Positions 1,598-16,749 of a DNA stretch of 24,000 nt are shown here, piece after piece. The stretch is taken from contig CAZZLD010000005.1 in NCBI GenBank assembly GCA_964655075.1, positions 117,741-141,740 of the forward strand. The letters run 5' to 3'. The DNA comes from an uncultured Candidatus Bathyarchaeia archaeon. GTDB taxonomy: Archaea > Thermoproteota > Bathyarchaeia > Bathyarchaeales > Bathyarchaeaceae. The translations under genes were made by a program, and so were the position numbers. A model generated the notes under the pieces. That model worked only from the letters and a program-made list of their open reading frames with translations, did no database searches and was not told where the DNA came from. Every line of letters starts with the position of its first letter. Within the stretch, counting starts at the first letter, position 1.

Positions 1598-2719
1598 TTG
1601 AGCGATGAAGAGGAAATGGTTGTCACCCCTTGGGAAGTCTCGGGGCCGGTTGACTACGAGAAGCTGATTGAGCAGTTCGGCACACAGCCTCTAACCAACG
1701 AGCTGTTGGAGAGGATAAAGAAGCACACGGGAAAACTGCACATACAACTCCGCAGGAGGCTGTTCTTTTCCCACCGAGACCTCGACTGGATCCTCGATCA
1801 ATACGAAGCAGGACAGAGATTCGTGCTCTACACGGGTAGAGGACCATCGGGACCTGTCCACATCGGACACTTGGTTCCGTGGATTTTCACGAAGCACCTC
1901 CAAGACAAGTTCAACGCGAAACTGTATTTCCAGATGACCGACGACGAGAAGTTTCTGATTCACCCCGAGTTCACCCTTGAAAAAACCGCTGGTTTCACTT
2001 ACGAAAACACGTTGGACCTCATCGCCGTGGGGCTTGACCCTGAAAAAACGAAGGTTATCGCAGACGTTAAAGACGTCAAGTTGCTCTACGAGATTGCAAT
2101 AAAAGTAGCCAAACACGTGACTTTCTCCACCGTTAAGGCGGTCTTCGGCTTCCAAGACAGCTCAAATATAGGAATAATCTTCTTCCCCGCCATCCAAGCG
2201 GCACCATGCTTTGTAGCATCAGCCCTCGCAGGCGAAAACGTGCCCTGCCTGATCCCCGCAGCCATCGATCAAGACCCGTACTGGCGAGTCACAAGGGACA
2301 TAGCCCCAAAAATCGGATACTACAAACCCGCTCAAATCCACTGCAAGTTCCTGCCGGGCTTAGGAAAAGGAGGGAAAATGTCGGCTTCCATGCCGGAAAC
2401 ATGCATATTCACCGTGGACACTCCTGAACAAGCGGAAAAGAAAATCTGGAACGCCTTCACAGGCGGCAAACCGACCGCCAAAGAACAGAAAAAGACGGGG
2501 GGAACCCCTTCGGTGTGCACGATTTACCAGTATTTTTACTACCTGTTCGAGGAAGGCGACAAAGAAATGGTGGAAATCGACAAAAGATGCAAGACGGGAG
2601 ACATCGTCTGCGGCGACTGCAAAGCGCTTTTGGCAGAAAGAGTGAAACGGTTCCTGAAAGACCATCAGAAGAAGAGAGAAAAGGCGAAAGACGTCATAGA
2701 CAAGTTCTTCGTCAAATAG
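1598..2719 (+). CDS. trpS: Tryptophan--tRNA ligase, archaeal/eukaryal type
   Basis: 'VTPWEVSG.VDYEKLIEQFG' N-terminus, HIGH motif 'PSGPVHIGHL' and KMSKS-class motif 'KMSAS'. TTG at 1598; ATG at 1616 is an alternative start. Confidence 0.95.
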   Translation: MSDEEEMVVTPWEVSGPVDYEKLIEQFGTQPLTNELLERIKKHTGKLHIQLRRRLFFSHRDLDWILDQYEAGQRFVLYTGRGPSGPVHIGHLVPWIFTKHLQDKFNAKLYFQMTDDEKFLIHPEFTLEKTAGFTYENTLDLIAVGLDPEKTKVIADVKDVKLLYEIAIKVAKHVTFSTVKAVFGFQDSSNIGIIFFPAIQAAPCFVASALAGENVPCLIPAAIDQDPYWRVTRDIAPKIGYYKPAQIHCKFLPGLGKGGKMSASMPETCIFTVDTPEQAEKKIWNAFTGGKPTAKEQKKTGGTPSVCTIYQYFYYLFEEGDKEMVEIDKRCKTGDIVCGDCKALLAERVKRFLKDHQKKREKAKDVIDKFFVK

Positions 2720-2754
2720 CGTTTATCTCTTACCCTAGTTTAGGAGAGGCACCC

Positions 2755-3372
2755 TTGAAAACCCTAATCGTTGACACCCGAATTAACCAGACCCTCCTAA
2801 GCTCCGTTGTTCCAGCCATAAAACCGTTCAGCGACTACGAAGTGGTAAGTTACGAGGACGTTAAACCCAACTTCAGAATCAAGAAGGACATCAACGCCGT
2901 GATTTTAACTGGTTCAGAAGCCAGAATCGTCTCGGAGGAGGACGTGGCGAAATTCAGCGAAGTAACCAAACTAATGAAACGCATAAACCTGCCAACGTTG
3001 GGCATCTGTTTCGGCCATCAACTCATGGCTCTCGCCCACGGAGCAAGCGTGGCCTCCTGTGAAAAGCCAGTTATGAACAGATTTGAAATGGTTCGCGTCC
3101 TTGAAGCAGATGAACTATTCCTCGGATATGAAAGCGGAGAGAAGATTCCGTTAGCTGAAACCCATAACGACTACGTGAGGAGAAACAGCTTAGAGGAAAG
3201 CGGTTTCAAGTTATTGGCTGATTCTCAGTCCTGCGAAGTTGAAGCGATAAAACACAGGAACAAACCGTTTTACGGCGTCCAATTCCACCCGGAAAGGACG
3301 AAGATCGAAGGAGAAGAACATAAGGACGGAATCAAAGTGATAAAAAACTTCTACCGCTACGTTGTGCATTGA
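2755..3372 (+). CDS. Class I glutamine amidotransferase (GATase1) family protein
   Basis: Nucleophile elbow 'LGICFGHQLMA' and 'FYGVQFHPE' His/Glu motif. TTG at 2755 is preceded by GGAGAGG. The upstream 240 nt of tracked ORF 2515..3372 overlaps trpS out of frame and is Arg-rich noise. Confidence 0.85.
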   Translation: MKTLIVDTRINQTLLSSVVPAIKPFSDYEVVSYEDVKPNFRIKKDINAVILTGSEARIVSEEDVAKFSEVTKLMKRINLPTLGICFGHQLMALAHGASVASCEKPVMNRFEMVRVLEADELFLGYESGEKIPLAETHNDYVRRNSLEESGFKLLADSQSCEVEAIKHRNKPFYGVQFHPERTKIEGEEHKDGIKVIKNFYRYVVH

Positions 3373-3423: not shown

Positions 3424-4425
3424 TTATTTTTGGGAAACTGGAATAAATTTTATTATTTGGAAGTCTCCAATGGGAATAACCCCAAAATCGGCGTCTTCTG
3501 ATGTTGGATCAAGTGGAATCCAATCATTCAAATCTTTTCCATCTTCAAGTTCTTGGTGAACAAGAGGTTTACAATAGTCAGGGGCACTCGGAATATAAAC
3601 TGCAGAATATACATGATCGGGAACTTTGTCATTATCTGTATCTGCGAATATCAACGCTGATTCGAAACCTATTGCTGATAGAAGAGAGCACAATAAAATT
3701 GCTTGATCTTCACAATCGCCAGCTCGAAGTTTCAGCGTTGTTGCCGGAGACTGAATTTCCTCGAACTCTAACGGATCCCGCACGTATTGAATTTCATCCC
3801 TTACAAATTCGTAGATTTTTCTTGCCTGCTTAAAGTCACCAGCACTAAACCTCATACCTAAACGTACTGCAAGTTTCCTAACACTCTTCGCGTTTCGATC
3901 TACTGCATCAGTAATCTTTGTGATAGAAAGATCGAGACTTTCTCTAGCTTTACCTCCTGATTGACCTTCCATTTTGTCTATAAGATGACAGATTGACCTG
4001 CGCAAATTATCTCCAATGGCACGATTTTGCCTAGAAAACCAAGCAACTTCTTTCTTATCCCGATCTGCTTCAGAATATTTTCGCATTAGAGGAATAAGTG
4101 AGGTGTCCAAAATTGTGCTTATCCCCAGCGCATGTCCCAGATACGCTAGGTGCAGTGAATCATTTTCTTGCTCTTTTTTGGCCAATGCCTTGTAATGTAG
4201 CATTACACATTTTGTGAAATAGATAATTCGATGTAAAACTTCATATGCGTTTAATCCAGTTGAGGTTGACGGAAAAGATTCGACAAGAATCCTTCTAGCT
4301 GTTGCTATAGAAACTATTGCACTATCAATTTTTCCTTGATCAAGTTCCTCTATCGCTTTTTGCAAAAATCGATTTGCCTTGACTAAAAAGTTTTCTTCCA
4401 AAGGGCACCCTCTTAAACCTATCAC
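3424..4425 (-). CDS. Transglutaminase-like cysteine protease-fold protein with an approx. 190-aa N-terminal helical domain
   Basis: C-terminal core 'LRAGDCEDQAILLCSLLSAIGFESALIF...DHVYSAVYIP...WIPLDPT' gives the Cys-His-Asp transglutaminase-core arrangement. The GTG start abuts the upstream stop (TAG|GTG). Confidence 0.8.
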   Translation of the reverse strand: MIGLRGCPLEENFLVKANRFLQKAIEELDQGKIDSAIVSIATARRILVESFPSTSTGLNAYEVLHRIIYFTKCVMLHYKALAKKEQENDSLHLAYLGHALGISTILDTSLIPLMRKYSEADRDKKEVAWFSRQNRAIGDNLRRSICHLIDKMEGQSGGKARESLDLSITKITDAVDRNAKSVRKLAVRLGMRFSAGDFKQARKIYEFVRDEIQYVRDPLEFEEIQSPATTLKLRAGDCEDQAILLCSLLSAIGFESALIFADTDNDKVPDHVYSAVYIPSAPDYCKPLVHQELEDGKDLNDWIPLDPTSEDADFGVIPIGDFQIIKFIPVSQK

Positions 4426-4776
4426 CTAGCGTTTCGACATGAAAATTTGAACCCACTTTTCGACGCGGGATTTGAGAGGTTCTGGTCCAGATATAGATCC
4501 ATCCCCATTTACCGTGACCTCCTGATTTCGCAAGCTGAGTATCCCGCTTATTGGATCAAAACTTTTGATTCCCCGTTCGTACAAAAAGGATGCGAACTTA
4601 TTGATGTTAAAATCATTTGTTGAAACAACTTCTTCATAGACAACCCGTTTAGCTACTGTTCCAACTTCCTTCGAAATTTGGATGACACTGTTACAGTATG
4701 GGCATTTAACGAATTTGGAATATGGAGAGATCGGACCCTTATAAGTAGCCCCACAGTTTTCACAGATCACGTTCAC
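4426..4776 (-). CDS. Zinc-ribbon protein (N-terminal CxxC...CxxC) with an uncharacterised C-terminal domain
   Basis: 'MNVICENCGATYKG...VKCPYCNSVIQ'. The GTG start overlaps the upstream stop (GTGA), and the stop abuts the downstream start. Confidence 0.7.
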   Translation of the reverse strand: MNVICENCGATYKGPISPYSKFVKCPYCNSVIQISKEVGTVAKRVVYEEVVSTNDFNINKFASFLYERGIKSFDPISGILSLRNQEVTVNGDGSISGPEPLKSRVEKWVQIFMSKR

Positions 4777-5207
4777 AAAGCTTCGCCACCAATGCCACGT
4801 TGGATAGCACTGATCCAGTCTCTTGCATTATAGACTTCAAAAGCTGGATTTTCCATTCCTTCAGGAGTGTCAAGGCTGACTATAAGGACCTCATACGGTT
4901 CTTTGCTAAAGAAAGAAGGTGGTTCATTCAAAGTACCCTTCTTCCTTGTGCGCGTCTCCACCGTGGCTCCCACAACACCATCTATCGGAAGGTTGATTTT
5001 CACACCTGCCGTTTGCACCTCATTTTTCTTGCCAAATCCCAGAAAGCCTCCTGATTTGACCACGCGTTGCTCTAAGAACAGAAATCGTTTGTTGGTCAAA
5101 ATAAGTTTTCCCCACATGAGAGATCCGATTCTGCTATAACCATTATGATAAACAACATTTTGTTGCTCTCTAACAACTTTCTCGCCACGCCCTAGGAAAA
5201 AACTCAT
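4773..5207 (-). CDS. PH/GRAM-like (bacterial PH-type) domain protein
   Basis: 'WGKLILTNKRFLFLE', 'INLPIDGVVGATVE' and the C-terminal helix 'ARDWISAIQRGI' match the GRAM/bPH pattern. ATG at 5207 is preceded by GGAGGTGA with a 10-nt spacer. Confidence 0.6.
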   Translation of the reverse strand: MSFFLGRGEKVVREQQNVVYHNGYSRIGSLMWGKLILTNKRFLFLEQRVVKSGGFLGFGKKNEVQTAGVKINLPIDGVVGATVETRTRKKGTLNEPPSFFSKEPYEVLIVSLDTPEGMENPAFEVYNARDWISAIQRGIGGEAL

Positions 5208-5343
5208 TTAGTTTTTTCACCTCCCCCTTTCTCTTGATATGATATACTTGATGAGATACACACTTTTAACCCTTTTGACGAGGGTTTTCCGATTTCCAAA
5301 AACGTTAAATCCGAACGGGGCGGGTAATATTCGTTGGAAAGGA

Positions 5344-5754
5344 ATGAAAGCGAACATGAGGAGAAGAGCCAAGGGCGTAAGTACCGAGGTTGAGTATCCT
5401 CCCGCGAAGAGGAGGATTCCATACCGGTCTTTAGCGTATTATGTCGGACGCCCTCTCAGGATCTTCGCGAAAGAAAACCCGCTTGTGAAGCATCCGGCAA
5501 TTTATGAAGGAACGTTATCAGGCGTCTTTGAGAATCCAACGGCTCTGCTTTTGGAGGACGCGTGTGCTCTTGTTTTAGATCTGGTTCCCATGCAGAAATA
5601 TTACAGCGTAGTGAAACGGGACAGAATTGGGGCGTTTTTCATTCGCATGGATGAAATCAGATACTTTGAGATATTGCCTGAGGGAAGCAGAAAACTACGC
5701 GCTTCGAAAAGTTATAAGCTAGGCATCAAAACCTTAGAGGATGTTGAAGGCTGA
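5344..5754 (+). CDS. Hypothetical protein, possible Sm-like (LSm) fold
   Basis: 'YVGRPLRIFAKEN...IYEGTLSGVFENPTALLLEDAC' resembles Sm1 (G.L.g.D....L.L.da) and 'IGAFFIRMDEIRYFEI' resembles Sm2 (IRG.nI). The start is taken at ATG 5344; tracked ORF begins at 5239. Weak by-eye call. Confidence 0.5.
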   Translation: MKANMRRRAKGVSTEVEYPPAKRRIPYRSLAYYVGRPLRIFAKENPLVKHPAIYEGTLSGVFENPTALLLEDACALVLDLVPMQKYYSVVKRDRIGAFFIRMDEIRYFEILPEGSRKLRASKSYKLGIKTLEDVEG

Positions 5755-8309: not shown

Positions 8310-9431
8310 CTACTGTCCAATCCCGATGGTGTTCCCTATTCCAGCTATTATGACTGAATCACCCTTCTTTGTTCGCTCAAGAATCAACCGCTTAATCCGT
8401 TCAATGACTTTGTCAGCAGCATCAATTACTTCCTTCCGCATCGTGGAAACCGCGTCTCCGAGGCTTTCCTTGATTATCACCGCGTTCATAGGAATCTTAT
8501 GCTTAAGCAACGCTTCGTCAGCTTTATATTTCTCGACCCCTGGCCCACCGATGGCCACGCCCACACCCTCAGCGACTTCTCCGGGCTGCTCCCCTTCAAA
8601 CTTCTGAGCGGCATCTATAATGATTATCGTGGCAATCTTTCCGTCGTTTTCCTCTACGATCCGTTTTATGCCTTCCCCGGGCTTACCCACGTTTCCGCCT
8701 GGGCCCTCTGCCTTTAGAACGTAGGCTGTTCGCCCTTCTATGGGCACCTTAGCCATGACAGTGTCCGTGGCTATCGTGCTTTTTTTATGTCCGTGCATTA
8801 ACCTCGCTGCGACAAGCGCTCCTGCACCATCGCCTATAGGTTGACCGTTAGTAAAGGCCCTCAGCGCGTCAGCGTAAGCTTTCGCTTCTTGCATAAGGAT
8901 GGGCAGCGCCATTTGAACCTGCATTATAACGTAGAGGCTCATGGTTTTTTTGCCGAGTAGATAAAAGTGTCTTATGACTTTGTAGATTATGTTCAAGGCG
9001 AGAGCCGCCTCAAGCATGTTCTCCAAGTTGTTTATTTGAGCTTCACTTGCCTCTGGGGCCATACGTTTTATTTCATCCTTAAAACGGAGATCGCGAACAT
9101 CCAGTACATGTTCAAGCTTCCAGACGACGCCTGAGGGATCCATGCTCTCAGGCGGATAGGCAACATATTCCAAAAACTCGTCCACTCTACTCGTGGGATC
9201 TTCTTTGGACTTTCCTATCTCTTTCATGGTGTCTATGGCGACTTTCCGCCCTTCATCCCTCATCTGTTTGAAGCGACCTAGAAAATTCCCCACTTCCCTC
9301 AACATGTTCCACACCTGAATGCGTTGACTGTAAAACATCATGAACACAAAGACCCCGAGCCAAAGTATCTGAAAAATGATTCCGAAAATGTTGTTTTCAC
9401 CGAAAAGTCCCTGCGAGACCCCTTGGATCAC
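8310..9431 (-). CDS. Conserved archaeal membrane-anchored protein, DUF1512-like (family name from memory)
   Basis: 373 aa with an N-terminal TM (IFGIIFQILWLGVFVFMMFY) and a large soluble domain with Gly-rich segments. The GTG start is preceded by GGTGAT. Size and architecture fit DUF1512, but this is not verified. Confidence 0.7.
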   Translation of the reverse strand: MIQGVSQGLFGENNIFGIIFQILWLGVFVFMMFYSQRIQVWNMLREVGNFLGRFKQMRDEGRKVAIDTMKEIGKSKEDPTSRVDEFLEYVAYPPESMDPSGVVWKLEHVLDVRDLRFKDEIKRMAPEASEAQINNLENMLEAALALNIIYKVIRHFYLLGKKTMSLYVIMQVQMALPILMQEAKAYADALRAFTNGQPIGDGAGALVAARLMHGHKKSTIATDTVMAKVPIEGRTAYVLKAEGPGGNVGKPGEGIKRIVEENDGKIATIIIIDAAQKFEGEQPGEVAEGVGVAIGGPGVEKYKADEALLKHKIPMNAVIIKESLGDAVSTMRKEVIDAADKVIERIKRLILERTKKGDSVIIAGIGNTIGIGQ

Positions 9432-15485: not shown

Positions 15486-15653
15486 ATGAGATTAATAACC
15501 TTACATCTACCCGAAACCTATATACAGGCGCTAGATCAGTTGGTGGACAGTCGTTATTATCCCAACAGGGCCGAAGCCATCCGGATAGCTGTCCGCGATC
15601 TGTTGAGCGATGAAGTCTGGAGAAGGGAATTTGTAAATGCAAATAGCAGATAA
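15486..15653 (+). CDS. cdrS: CdrS-like ribbon-helix-helix protein (55 aa) immediately upstream of and overlapping ftsZ
   Basis: MRLITLHLPETYIQALDQLVDSRYYPNRAEAIRIAVRDLLSDEVWRREFVNANSR shows the RHH pattern with 'PNR(S/A)EAIR.AVRDLL'. An in-frame TAA lies 2 codons upstream of the ATG. The 3' end overlaps the ftsZ ATG by 17 nt. Not in the ORF track. Confidence 0.75.
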   Translation: MRLITLHLPETYIQALDQLVDSRYYPNRAEAIRIAVRDLLSDEVWRREFVNANSR

Positions 15654-16749
15654 GGCGCTTCAGTCCGTTTGGCCTGAAGCGGTCCACGAGGGGATCCGTG
15701 AACCCGGCTACTGCCGCATAGCGGTTCTCGGCGTTGGTGGCGCAGGAAACAACACCGTTAACCGCCTAATGGAAACAGGAATCGCAGGAGCCGAGTGTGT
15801 CGCTATAAACACGGACATCCAGCATCTCAACGCTGTGCACGCAGCCCACAAGGTTCTGATCGGGGAGAAAACCACTAGAGGCTTGGGGTCCGGAGGAGAC
15901 CCGAAGATCGGAAGAGCCTCAATAGAAGAGTCAATTGAAAAAGTTGACAGCCTACTCACCGACGTTGACATTGCGTTCATTACTGCAGGAATGGGCGGCG
16001 GAACTGGCACAGGAGCTGCTCCTGTAGTGGCTGATCTGGCCCGACGCAAAGGCGCAATCGTGGTCGGAGTCGTCACCACGCCCTTCAAAATCGAAAGGGG
16101 AAGAGGCTGGTATGCAGCGCAGGGATTGAACGCCATGAGGAGAGCCTGCGACACGGTGGTAGTAATTGACAACAACAAGCTTATGGAGGCGGTTCCTCAC
16201 CTACCGTTGATTGAAGCTTTCGGCGTTGCAGACAGCGTTCTGTCAAACATGATCAAGGGCATAGCGGAAACCATATCGGCGCCGAGCCTTATCAACTTGG
16301 ACTTCGCCGACTTTAGAACCATAGTGAAGATGGGCGGAGTAGCCGTAGTTGGCATAGGAGAGTCAGACGCGCCGAACAGGGCGGAGGAAGCCGTTAGAAA
16401 CGCTTTGAGGAGTCCTCTGCTGAACATTGACTATGCGGGAGCAAAAGGGGCGTTGATCCACGTTTCTGGAGATGACGAAATGAGCATAGAGGAAGCAAAC
16501 CGAGTAGCGGAGATCATAACCGGAACCATGGGCGACGACTCCCTCGTCATCTGGGGCGCGAGGGTAGATCCAGCACTAGCAGGAGTCTTAAGGGTAACTA
16601 TGGTCATAACTGGCGTACATTCGCCCGACATGCTGAGCGGCTTCGGAACCATGCCGCCAAAAATCTTCGACTTAGATCCAACCGCCGACTCCGAGGAACC
16701 ACTAAATCTGGACTTGAACCTTGATCAACTTGAAAAAACTAGGCCCTAA
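15637..16749 (+). CDS. ftsZ: Cell division protein FtsZ (tubulin homolog)
   Basis: 'IAVLGVGGAGNNTVNRL', tubulin signature 'GMGGGTGTGAAPVVA', and 'TPF.FEG' as 'TTPFKIERGRG'. Confidence 0.97.
   Translation: MQIADKALQSVWPEAVHEGIREPGYCRIAVLGVGGAGNNTVNRLMETGIAGAECVAINTDIQHLNAVHAAHKVLIGEKTTRGLGSGGDPKIGRASIEESIEKVDSLLTDVDIAFITAGMGGGTGTGAAPVVADLARRKGAIVVGVVTTPFKIERGRGWYAAQGLNAMRRACDTVVVIDNNKLMEAVPHLPLIEAFGVADSVLSNMIKGIAETISAPSLINLDFADFRTIVKMGGVAVVGIGESDAPNRAEEAVRNALRSPLLNIDYAGAKGALIHVSGDDEMSIEEANRVAEIITGTMGDDSLVIWGARVDPALAGVLRVTMVITGVHSPDMLSGFGTMPPKIFDLDPTADSEEPLNLDLNLDQLEKTRP

Follow-up and report, generated by a model that had tools for sequence, protein, structure and literature searches.

The transglutaminase-like cysteine proteases form a superfamily that was reportedly delineated by Makarova, Aravind and Koonin in 1999, and one of its transglutaminase-fold proteases, LapG, sets a precedent for control by a signalling partner; KaiC-like proteins of archaea are said, by Makarova and colleagues in 2017, to act as hubs of signal transduction. 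In the signal transduction of archaea, inactivated KaiC-like (iKaiC) proteins and the TackOD1 domain have been described as components and output domains (Galperin et al. 2018, PMC5847659). The prokaryotic PH domains (PHb) have the GRAM and GLUE domains as their generic nearest neighbours, and all three kinds of domain have been reported to bury an ion pair between a Glu before strand beta1 and an Arg at the start of strand beta3 (Xu et al. 2010, PMC2817789). Since CheF, an adaptor of archaeal chemotaxis, has two PH-like domains that have been proposed to be protein-interaction platforms in signalling, such a role of PH-like domains in archaea has precedent, and the pathway of CheF ends at a complex that contains the KaiC-like protein ArlH (PMC9126983). 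Zn-ribbons are combined with a PH domain in Znr_PH_CC_SB of Asgard archaea, a proposed component of the endosomal sorting complex ESCRT-I (PMC11188069). This report concerns a cassette of three genes, here called g1 (4773-5207), g2 (4426-4776) and g3 (3424-4401), which encode a predicted stand-alone PH-fold protein, a putative Zn-ribbon adaptor and a protein with a transglutaminase-fold core, respectively, on the minus strand of a stretch of 24,000 nucleotides (the window) of contig CAZZLD010000005.1 (positions 117,741 to 141,740; assembly GCA_964655075.1) from an uncultured Candidatus Bathyarchaeia archaeon. The Bathyarchaeia are abundant uncultivated archaea of sediments, and their regulatory biology is essentially unknown.

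Linkage and gene order of the cassette

A g1 profile scan of one genome per GTDB species retrieved 10 loci, all of them in metagenome-assembled genomes (MAGs) of Bathyarchaeia type, which were joined by two further g1 contexts from exact look-ups to give 12 g1-anchored loci; a g3 profile scan of metagenomes retrieved 12 analysable loci with full-length orthologues (L017-L028). g2 adjoins g1 in all 12 g1-anchored loci, and g3 is present in eight of them, being missing in L004, L008, L009 (a short contig) and L099. Around g3, the neighbouring gene is g2 in 12 of 12 loci, and g1 is found in all 11 loci where flanking sequence exists. The tandem order g1, g2, g3 of the window recurs in L001, L002, L005, L017-L020, L022, L024, L025 and L028, but the same genes are also arranged with g3 ahead of g1 and g2 convergent with g1 (L007, L026), with g1 and g2 convergent and g3 beyond g2 in the direction of g1 (L027, L097), with g2 divergent from a tandem of g3 and g1 (L023), or as a divergent pair of g2 and g1 with no g3 (L008, L009, L099). 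The genes flanking the cassette are not conserved among the loci. Divergence is correlated among the three proteins (comparison of identity matrices over 16 loci, Mantel r of 0.77 for g1-g3, 0.55 for g1-g2 and 0.83 for g2-g3), and none of 2000 permutations reached the observed values. Because the linkage outlasts rearrangement and the g3 subfamily was never seen away from g1 and g2, the three genes are a conserved functional unit. The first-pass annotation of this DNA had taken the trio for a unit from the window alone, and the linkage of all three genes proves to be kept over at least four gene orders; g3, on the other hand, is no part of the core. Its absence from 4 of the 12 g1-g2 loci makes the g1-g2 pair, rather than the protease, the core of the cassette and g3 a dedicated but dispensable accessory.

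The best homologues were found at E-values of 1e-122 for g3, 1e-76 for g1 and 1e-35 for g2, so that, judged by homology, all three are real genes and no chance open reading frames (ORFs); the named matches are all from Bathyarchaeota or Bathyarchaeia. The ORFs first listed were confirmed on the sequence, as were the motifs quoted from their translations, each of which was found in its place in g1, g2 or g3. g1 (144 amino acids) runs from an ATG at 5207 to a TGA at 4773 and is preceded on the minus strand by the Shine-Dalgarno-like sequence GGAGGTGA (5217-5224, read from the sequence), with a 9-nucleotide spacer to the ATG. g2 (116 amino acids) runs from a GTG at 4776 to a TAG at 4426, and its start overlaps the stop of g1 by 4 nucleotides (GTGA, 4776-4773), as had been annotated; an NTGA start/stop overlap between g1 and g2 is common to seven related loci (L001, L002, L017-L020 and L028). 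The junction between g2 and g3 is probably different from the direct abutment of TAG and GTG at 4425/4426 that had been proposed. The GTG at 4425 would give g3 333 amino acids, whereas the database gene call P0001 (325 amino acids) and the N-termini of all orthologues start at MEEN, which corresponds to the TTG at 4401-4399; this TTG is probably the true start of a gene that ends with a TAA at 3424. It lies 24 nucleotides past the stop of g2, a spacer of 20-30 nucleotides is found between g2 and g3 in orthologous loci too, and the TTG has a Shine-Dalgarno-like GAGGGTG of its own. With this motif and spacer, g3 probably has its own ribosome-binding site, independent of the single Shine-Dalgarno-like sequence upstream of g1. 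Of the translationally coupled unit once envisaged behind a single ribosome-binding site, the g1-g2 overlap thus stands, being kept in seven loci, and the inclusion of g3 probably does not. No clear transmembrane segment (by hydropathy) and no obvious N-terminal signal sequence was found in g1, g2 or g3, so that all three proteins look cytoplasmic.

The PH-fold protein and its C-terminal tail

The AlphaFold2 model of g1, made with 23 homologues (pLDDT 88.3, pTM 0.81), is a beta-sandwich of seven or eight strands followed by a C-terminal helix (residues 128-140). In a Foldseek search of the PDB the best match is the PH/GLUE domain of yeast Vps36 (2cay; E 7e-4, TM 0.52), which is followed by the PH-GRAM domain of MTMR2 and then by dozens of PH domains, with probability 1.00 and TM scores of about 0.45-0.54; in a viral structure library only generic phage 'bacterial PH domain' proteins were matched. 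The model and these matches bear out the PH/GRAM-like signature that had been read from the motifs GKLILTNKRFLF (5076-5111, minus strand) and ARDWISAIQ (4800-4826, minus strand). Throughout 27 divergent members of the g1 family G33, L35, F123 and W131 are invariant, and W131 is located in the predicted helix 128-140; a Trp in the C-terminal helix is a hallmark of PH domains. g1 also bears the signature G-x-L-x-L-T-x-x-R-x-x-F, and E9 and R41, both invariant in the core g1 family, correspond in sequence position to the Glu and Arg that are paired and buried in PHb, GRAM and GLUE domains. The assignment of g1 to the prokaryotic-type PH domains, of the GRAM/GLUE-like type, is made with confidence from the predicted structure. 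The family, which is absent from Pfam, is tiny (a search of 1.84 billion proteins gave 27 representatives at E <= 1e-3), and g1 is the slowest-evolving member of the cassette, with a mean pairwise identity of 65% compared with 48% for g2 and g3, and with about 80% identity where g3 has about 57%.

The structural match to Vps36 bears on a rival explanation, in which g1 would correspond in archaea to the GLUE domain of Vps36, a binder of membrane or ubiquitin, and would act with a Zn-finger partner in ESCRT-type membrane remodelling. Yeast Vps36 itself combines its GLUE domain with NZF fingers, and the GLUE model Vps36_ESCRT-II is both the sole Pfam match of g1 (E 1.1e-3, 19.6 bits) and the best Pfam match of 19 of the 27 family members (best E 5.5e-5), in keeping with the top Foldseek match in the PDB. 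g1 also has a basic patch, and Zn-ribbons and PH domains are combined in the proposed ESCRT-I components of Asgard archaea (PMC11188069). The GLUE scores are, however, all below the gathering threshold (24.1 bits), as are the matches to GRAM (2 of 27 members) and bPH_3 (1 of 27); no model of the Pfam PH clan exceeds its curated threshold for g1, and the GLUE relation reaches only E 0.31 in a sequence search of the PDB. Since GRAM and GLUE are generic neighbours of prokaryotic PH domains (PMC2817789), the resemblance of g1 to GLUE is not specific for ESCRT. Genes for EAP30/winged-helix proteins, Vps25, steadiness-box proteins, ESCRT-III, Vps4 or ubiquitin were not found in the window or in related loci, and the window encodes FtsZ. 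A specific ESCRT/GLUE homology of g1 was therefore downgraded, on account of the subthreshold scores and the generic nature of these PH neighbours, and an ESCRT role for the cassette is very unlikely.

Two elements of g1 are the family's own. In the family alignment a basic strand and loop, ETRTRKKGT (residues 84-92; 4932-4958, minus strand), has E84, R86, R88, K89, K90 and T92 (ExRxRKKxT) invariant in the core family, and an R-x-R-[SK]-[KR]-like motif is still seen in distant relatives. The C-terminal tail GGEAL (4776-4790, minus strand) follows the pattern (I/V)GGE-φ-φ-COOH, which is near-invariant in the core alignment and predicted to be disordered (pLDDT of the last block 48). The possibility that this tail is an artefact of a Shine-Dalgarno sequence for g2 (GGN-GGN-GAR) was rejected, because the tail persists, and its codons vary, irrespective of the position of g2: it is present, with different Gly codons, in loci with a convergent g2 (L007, L026, L027), in one with g1 as its last gene (L023), and in those with a T-rich spacer of about 90 nucleotides trailing g1 (L003-L006, L024, L025). 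As it is kept with synonymous changes where g2 is not immediately downstream, the tail is under constraint at the protein level. In the 40 nucleotides right after the g1 stop, an oligo-T tract (T5-T7) was noted in L003-L006, L022, L024 and L025, loci in which the gap between g1 and g2 is about 90 nucleotides as compared with the 4-nucleotide overlap in the clade of the window; the tract could be an archaeal terminator or attenuator that raises the expression of g1 above that of g2 and g3.

The tail is partly associated with g3. Distant clades of the g1 family have no GGE tail, and their neighbourhoods have no g3 homologue either; among the core loci without g3 the tail is relaxed in L008 (GGQAV) and L009 (AGELL) and intact in L004 and L099. 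A strict coupling of the tail to the presence of g3 was rejected, the association being partial, with two of four loci without g3 keeping GGE. Ubiquitin-like precursors are trimmed by proteases of the DUB, ULP and Atg4 types, and by analogy the cassette might be a tagging or pro-protein system, in which g3 trims the GG-E-φ-φ tail of g1 and g1 is perhaps then transferred to lysines by transamidation. The invariant GG(E), the more variable two-residue end, the disorder and the protein-level conservation of the tail are consistent with such a system, as are the intact thiol site of g3, on a fold used by isopeptidases and transamidases (PeiW/PeiP, PNGase), and the occurrence of GGQ in one and AGE in another of the loci without g3. 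The fold of g1, however, is that of a PH domain, neither the beta-grasp of ubiquitin-like modifiers nor the intrinsically disordered state of Pup, and to our knowledge there is no precedent for a PH-fold protein modifier; the GGE of g1 is followed by two more residues, unlike the C-terminal GG, GGQ or GGE of modifiers; no E1-, E2-, PafA- or Dop-like gene was found in any neighbourhood examined; and the tails of L004 and L099 persist where there is no g3. Tagging or pro-protein processing is decidedly improbable on this evidence, and there is very little likelihood that the tail is matured by the cassette's own g3, with a possible transfer of g1 to targets, in a system wired to the KaiC-like network through g2.

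Adaptor, KaiC-like domains, enzyme and neighbourhood

g2 begins with a Zn-ribbon of four Cys, continues with a variable linker and ends in a conserved domain of about 60 amino acids. C5, C8, C25 and C28, which form two CxxC knuckles about 16 residues apart (4753-4764 and 4693-4704, minus strand), are conserved in all Zn-type g2 sequences; 17 homologues of g2 were found, and its Pfam matches are weak Zn-ribbon matches, all below threshold. The C-terminal domain (residues 56-116; 4429-4611, minus strand) is the constant part of g2, with F56, F61, L65, G69, D74, S77, G78, G93, G97, L101, E106 and W108 invariant in the alignment. No relative of this domain was found in profile searches of Pfam, NCBIfam and the PDB, and by its sequence it is a new small domain. 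The initial description of g2 as a Zn-ribbon joined to an unassigned domain thus remains valid in both of its parts.

In four loci (L003, L004, L006 and L010) the position of g2 is occupied by a longer protein of 315-325 amino acids (L003:6523-7500, L004:6523-7497, L010:6563-7510, L006:2364-3197), which ends in the same C-terminal domain of about 60 amino acids, as was found by tblastn with residues 56-115 of g2. Its N-terminal 260 or so residues match KaiC (PF06745; E 3.9e-11, 43.2 bits against a threshold of 26.6) and DUF7504, without the lysine of Walker A ('VVLTSPSCDERD'; 'LTSPSCDERD'). A predicted inactivated KaiC-like domain is thus swapped in for the Zn-ribbon of g2 in one subclade of Bathyarchaeia, with the C-terminal domain kept. 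The same partnership is found as gene fusions among distant relatives of g1: in P0178 (L011:39-1250) a PH domain is fused to the same inactivated KaiC-like domain ('VLLTSPSCDERD'), and in P0179 (L012:7001-7606) and P0186 it is fused to a C-terminal Zn-ribbon. Other distant relatives adjoin genes for KaiC-like proteins with a degenerate Walker A (L014, L015), and the one in L015 adjoins a TackOD1 multi-Zn-ribbon protein. This tie of PH domains to Zn-ribbons or iKaiC, by both adjacency and fusion, points to the KaiC-like signalling network of archaea as the most likely affiliation of the module, in preference to a defence or ESCRT system.

Several further observations were made in these loci. 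The P0178 fusion gene of L011 is followed by a second PH-like paralogue, and the PH-Zn-ribbon gene of L012 is divergent from a RadA gene. When all ORFs of 11 loci were clustered, no additional conserved partner of the trio was found save one protein of the iKaiC subclade, of about 175 amino acids, which is encoded divergently from g1 (L003:5244-5771, L004:5239-5772, L006:879-1373, L010:5170-5697, all on the minus strand) and has a beta-rich domain between a signal or transmembrane segment at its N-terminus and a transmembrane anchor at its C-terminus, with no Pfam match. In two MAGs of the 'MFD' series there are apparent frameshifts, which split g2 of L006 (2364-2669 and 2829-3197) and both g1 (6001-6177/6119-6430) and g3 (7483-8049/8119-8496) of L010; at a guess, errors of assembly or sequencing are likelier than real pseudogenes.

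g3 joins an all-helical N-terminal domain (residues 1 to about 170) to a core that matches Transglut_core of Pfam (PF01841; E 1.1e-11, 45.4 bits against a threshold of 23, residues 196-307), with further matches to DUF553 and to the CEP76 peptidase-like domain. In the AlphaFold2 model (pLDDT 87.9) the core has Foldseek matches to 3isr (E 8.7e-4), 3kd4, LapG (4u65_E), PNGase (2f4o), PeiW/PeiP and TglA, and the N-terminal domain has matches, with low TM scores, to peptide-binding scaffolds of TPR type, those of sNASP, Hif1, Hip, Sec72 and FKBP38. The catalytic residues, in the numbering of P0001, are C230 of the motif GDCEDQ (3703-3720; residue 238 if counted from the GTG), H263 of DHVY (3607-3618) and D298 of PLDPT (3502-3516), all on the minus strand. 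Across 28 orthologues, with identities down to 36%, this triad does not vary, nor do G228, D229, D232 and D262, and P296 and L297 are nearly invariant; the helical region joined to an intact Cys-His-Asp core, as first recognised in the window, is borne out. The protein stays below the threshold of Peptidase_C93/BTLCP (PF06035; E 0.22, 11.7 bits against a threshold of 27), and it has no obvious N-terminal signal sequence, unlike the periplasmic BTLCP/LapG. Its chemistry would be that of an amide bond, as a protease, isopeptidase, deamidase or transamidase.

It is unlikely that g3 is simply a housekeeping peptidase or amidase of small substrates, co-transcribed with a g1-g2 pair that has a separate role. 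The resemblance of its core to PNGase and PeiW/PeiP and the four of 12 loci in which g1 and g2 occur by themselves would fit such an enzyme, but the subfamily with this N-terminal domain was never found apart from g1 and g2 (12 of 12 loci), even after rearrangements, its divergence is correlated with that of g2 (r 0.83), and it looks cytoplasmic, with no obvious signal peptide, whereas enzymes of the PeiW type act on the cell wall.

The window is otherwise an ordinary stretch of chromosome, with genes for MscL, TrpRS, a GATase, a flavin reductase, MetAP, a DUF1512 protein, aRF1, a MiaB-like enzyme, MetRS and others. No ESCRT, ubiquitin, mobile-element or defence genes were found in it. An FtsZ homologue (Tubulin and FtsZ_C domains; 15637-16749, plus strand), encoded about 10 kb from the cassette with no Cdv/ESCRT genes near it, fits FtsZ-based division in this archaeon. 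On the plus strand, 31 nucleotides from the start of g1, there is an ORF of 171 amino acids (5239-5754) with no Pfam match, which is not conserved beside the cassette elsewhere and probably has its true start inside, for example at a Met about 35 codons downstream. As listed, the ORF of the glutamine amidotransferase (2515-3372, plus strand) shares about 200 nucleotides with the TrpRS gene, at the 3' end of the latter; the N-terminus of the amidotransferase is Arg-rich and of low complexity, the Pfam GATase match begins at residue 123, and the true start is probably downstream.

Elsewhere, a Band_7/SPFH protein with several C-terminal Zn-ribbons is encoded about 3 kb from g1 in L097 (8944-9984, minus strand) and L100 (3600-4583, plus strand); the two copies are 28% identical, they were seen near g1 in these two loci only, and their presence is probably a coincidence. 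The loci without g3 were found to have no consistent replacement effector among their neighbours, which encode an HD-domain protein, a radical SAM protein, ribosomal protein S12, a DUF1385 protein and proteins without match. Directly downstream of g1 there is a DDE transposase in L099 (3701-4588) and L100 (1139-1870), both of them without g3, and this element may have displaced g3. In L008, another locus without g3, an integrase-like ORF (8395-9303) lies about 2 kb from g1.

The first-pass annotation had also considered a conflict-type module. In such an anti-virus or conflict system a sensor/adaptor pair would control a toxic thiol protease effector. Transglutaminase-like proteases serve as effectors in some defence systems, a weak match to ProA was obtained (E 2e-3; 15 bits, where the cut-off is 1500), and g3 is a component that is accessory and sometimes lost, with an integrase-like gene near the cassette in L008 and a transposase in L099 and L100. 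Nevertheless, no significant match to the PADLOC defence models was found for g1, g2, g3, the long g2 or the P0178 fusion, and the neighbourhood in the window is one of housekeeping genes (TrpRS, MetAP, aRF1, FtsZ, MetRS). g1 is unusually well conserved (about 80% as against about 57% for g3), unlike fast-evolving conflict genes, and the congruent divergence of the trio is consistent with vertical inheritance. A defence system was rejected for want of a PADLOC match and because of the housekeeping context, and a conflict role is very unlikely indeed.

Proposed role and comparison with known systems

The preferred explanation, to which a probability of about 0.4 is assigned, is that the cassette is a cytoplasmic, Bathyarchaeia-specific regulatory module of the archaeal KaiC-like/iKaiC network, with g1 and g2 as its obligatory core and g3 as its output enzyme. 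A physical complex of the three proteins is proposed, together with a ligand and a substrate of g3. The PH fold of g1 would be a binding platform that pairs with the N-terminal module of g2, either the Zn-ribbon or, in the sister subclade, iKaiC, and an anionic ligand, for instance a lipid headgroup of the membrane or a partner that is phosphorylated, would likely bind at the basic strand ExRxRKKxT of g1. g2 would act as a bridge through its conserved C-terminal domain. The TPR-like N-terminal domain of g3 would hold a protein or peptide partner, and its Cys-His-Asp site would cleave or modify an amide bond of a protein target as an accessory output. The GGE-φ-φ tail of g1 may be a short linear motif that is read by another member of the cassette, g3 or g2, and for g3 it is a candidate ligand or substrate.

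Several points weigh against a regulatory module of this kind. No KaiC match (PF06745) was found in g2 of the window, so that the cassette is a neighbour of the KaiC/iKaiC family and no member of it, and the link to KaiC is drawn from a sister subclade and from distant relatives of g1. The tail is not strictly tied to g3, being intact in L004 and L099. Correlated divergence is to be expected of any neighbours that are vertically co-inherited. Conservation within the cassette is lowest in the N-terminal domain of g3, where few polar residues are kept, and this disfavours the domain as the reader of an invariant tail. The combination of the trio is absent from the literature searched, which excluded the review of KaiC hubs by Makarova et al. 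of 2017, where it may be mentioned. This absence of a published description, together with profile searches that led to no characterised pathway, also agrees with the earlier statement that no system of this composition had been described.

The cassette defines a new archaeal PH-fold family, a new small domain (the C-terminal domain of g2) and a dedicated transglutaminase-fold subfamily that was never found apart from them. The exchange of Zn-ribbon for iKaiC and the PH-iKaiC fusions connect PH-like platforms with the proposed KaiC-like hubs in a concrete and testable way, and suggest that regulated thiol proteolysis or amide modification may be one output of this network. All three are small and soluble proteins that can easily be expressed, so that their binding partners, what becomes of the tail and the substrate of g3 are open to direct tests. 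Were the tail processed, the cassette would represent a new type of archaeal protein modifier or pro-protein system, one not based on the beta-grasp fold; if it is not, the cassette is a useful but specialist addition to archaeal signalling.

When compared with prokaryotic PHb, GRAM-PH and Vps36-GLUE domains, g1 has in common with them the beta-sandwich and C-terminal helix, W131 and the signature, with E9 and R41 matching in sequence position, and it forms a separate family of 27 members with its own ExRxRKKxT strand and GGE-φ-φ tail. It differs from Vps36 of ESCRT-II in being a stand-alone protein without winged-helix (EAP30) domains. From CheF it differs in the absence of any sequence relationship, in having a single stand-alone PH domain and in having no CheY or archaellum genes nearby. 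The comparison with Asgard Znr_PH_CC_SB was made by description and not by sequence, and g1 and g2 have no coiled coil, steadiness box or ESCRT context. With the superfamily of transglutaminase-like cysteine proteases (PF01841), to which LapG/BTLCP, PNGase and PeiW/PeiP belong, g3 shares a score above threshold, the triad and the fold, and it differs in its apparently cytoplasmic location, its TPR-like N-terminal domain and its genetic tie to a PH protein and a Zn-ribbon adaptor. The associations given in the literature on iKaiC and TackOD1 (excluding Makarova et al. of 2017) do not include PH partners, the C-terminal domain of g2 or an enzyme with the transglutaminase fold. With the KaiC-like/iKaiC hubs the cassette shares the iKaiC domain at the position of g2 in the sister subclade, the PH-iKaiC fusions, and the iKaiC and TackOD1 neighbours of distant relatives of g1, although g2 of the window itself bears a Zn-ribbon and not iKaiC. 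Thus, the combination of the three proteins is apparently undescribed, while all of its parts come from known superfamilies and fit the theme of iKaiC-associated signalling in archaea.

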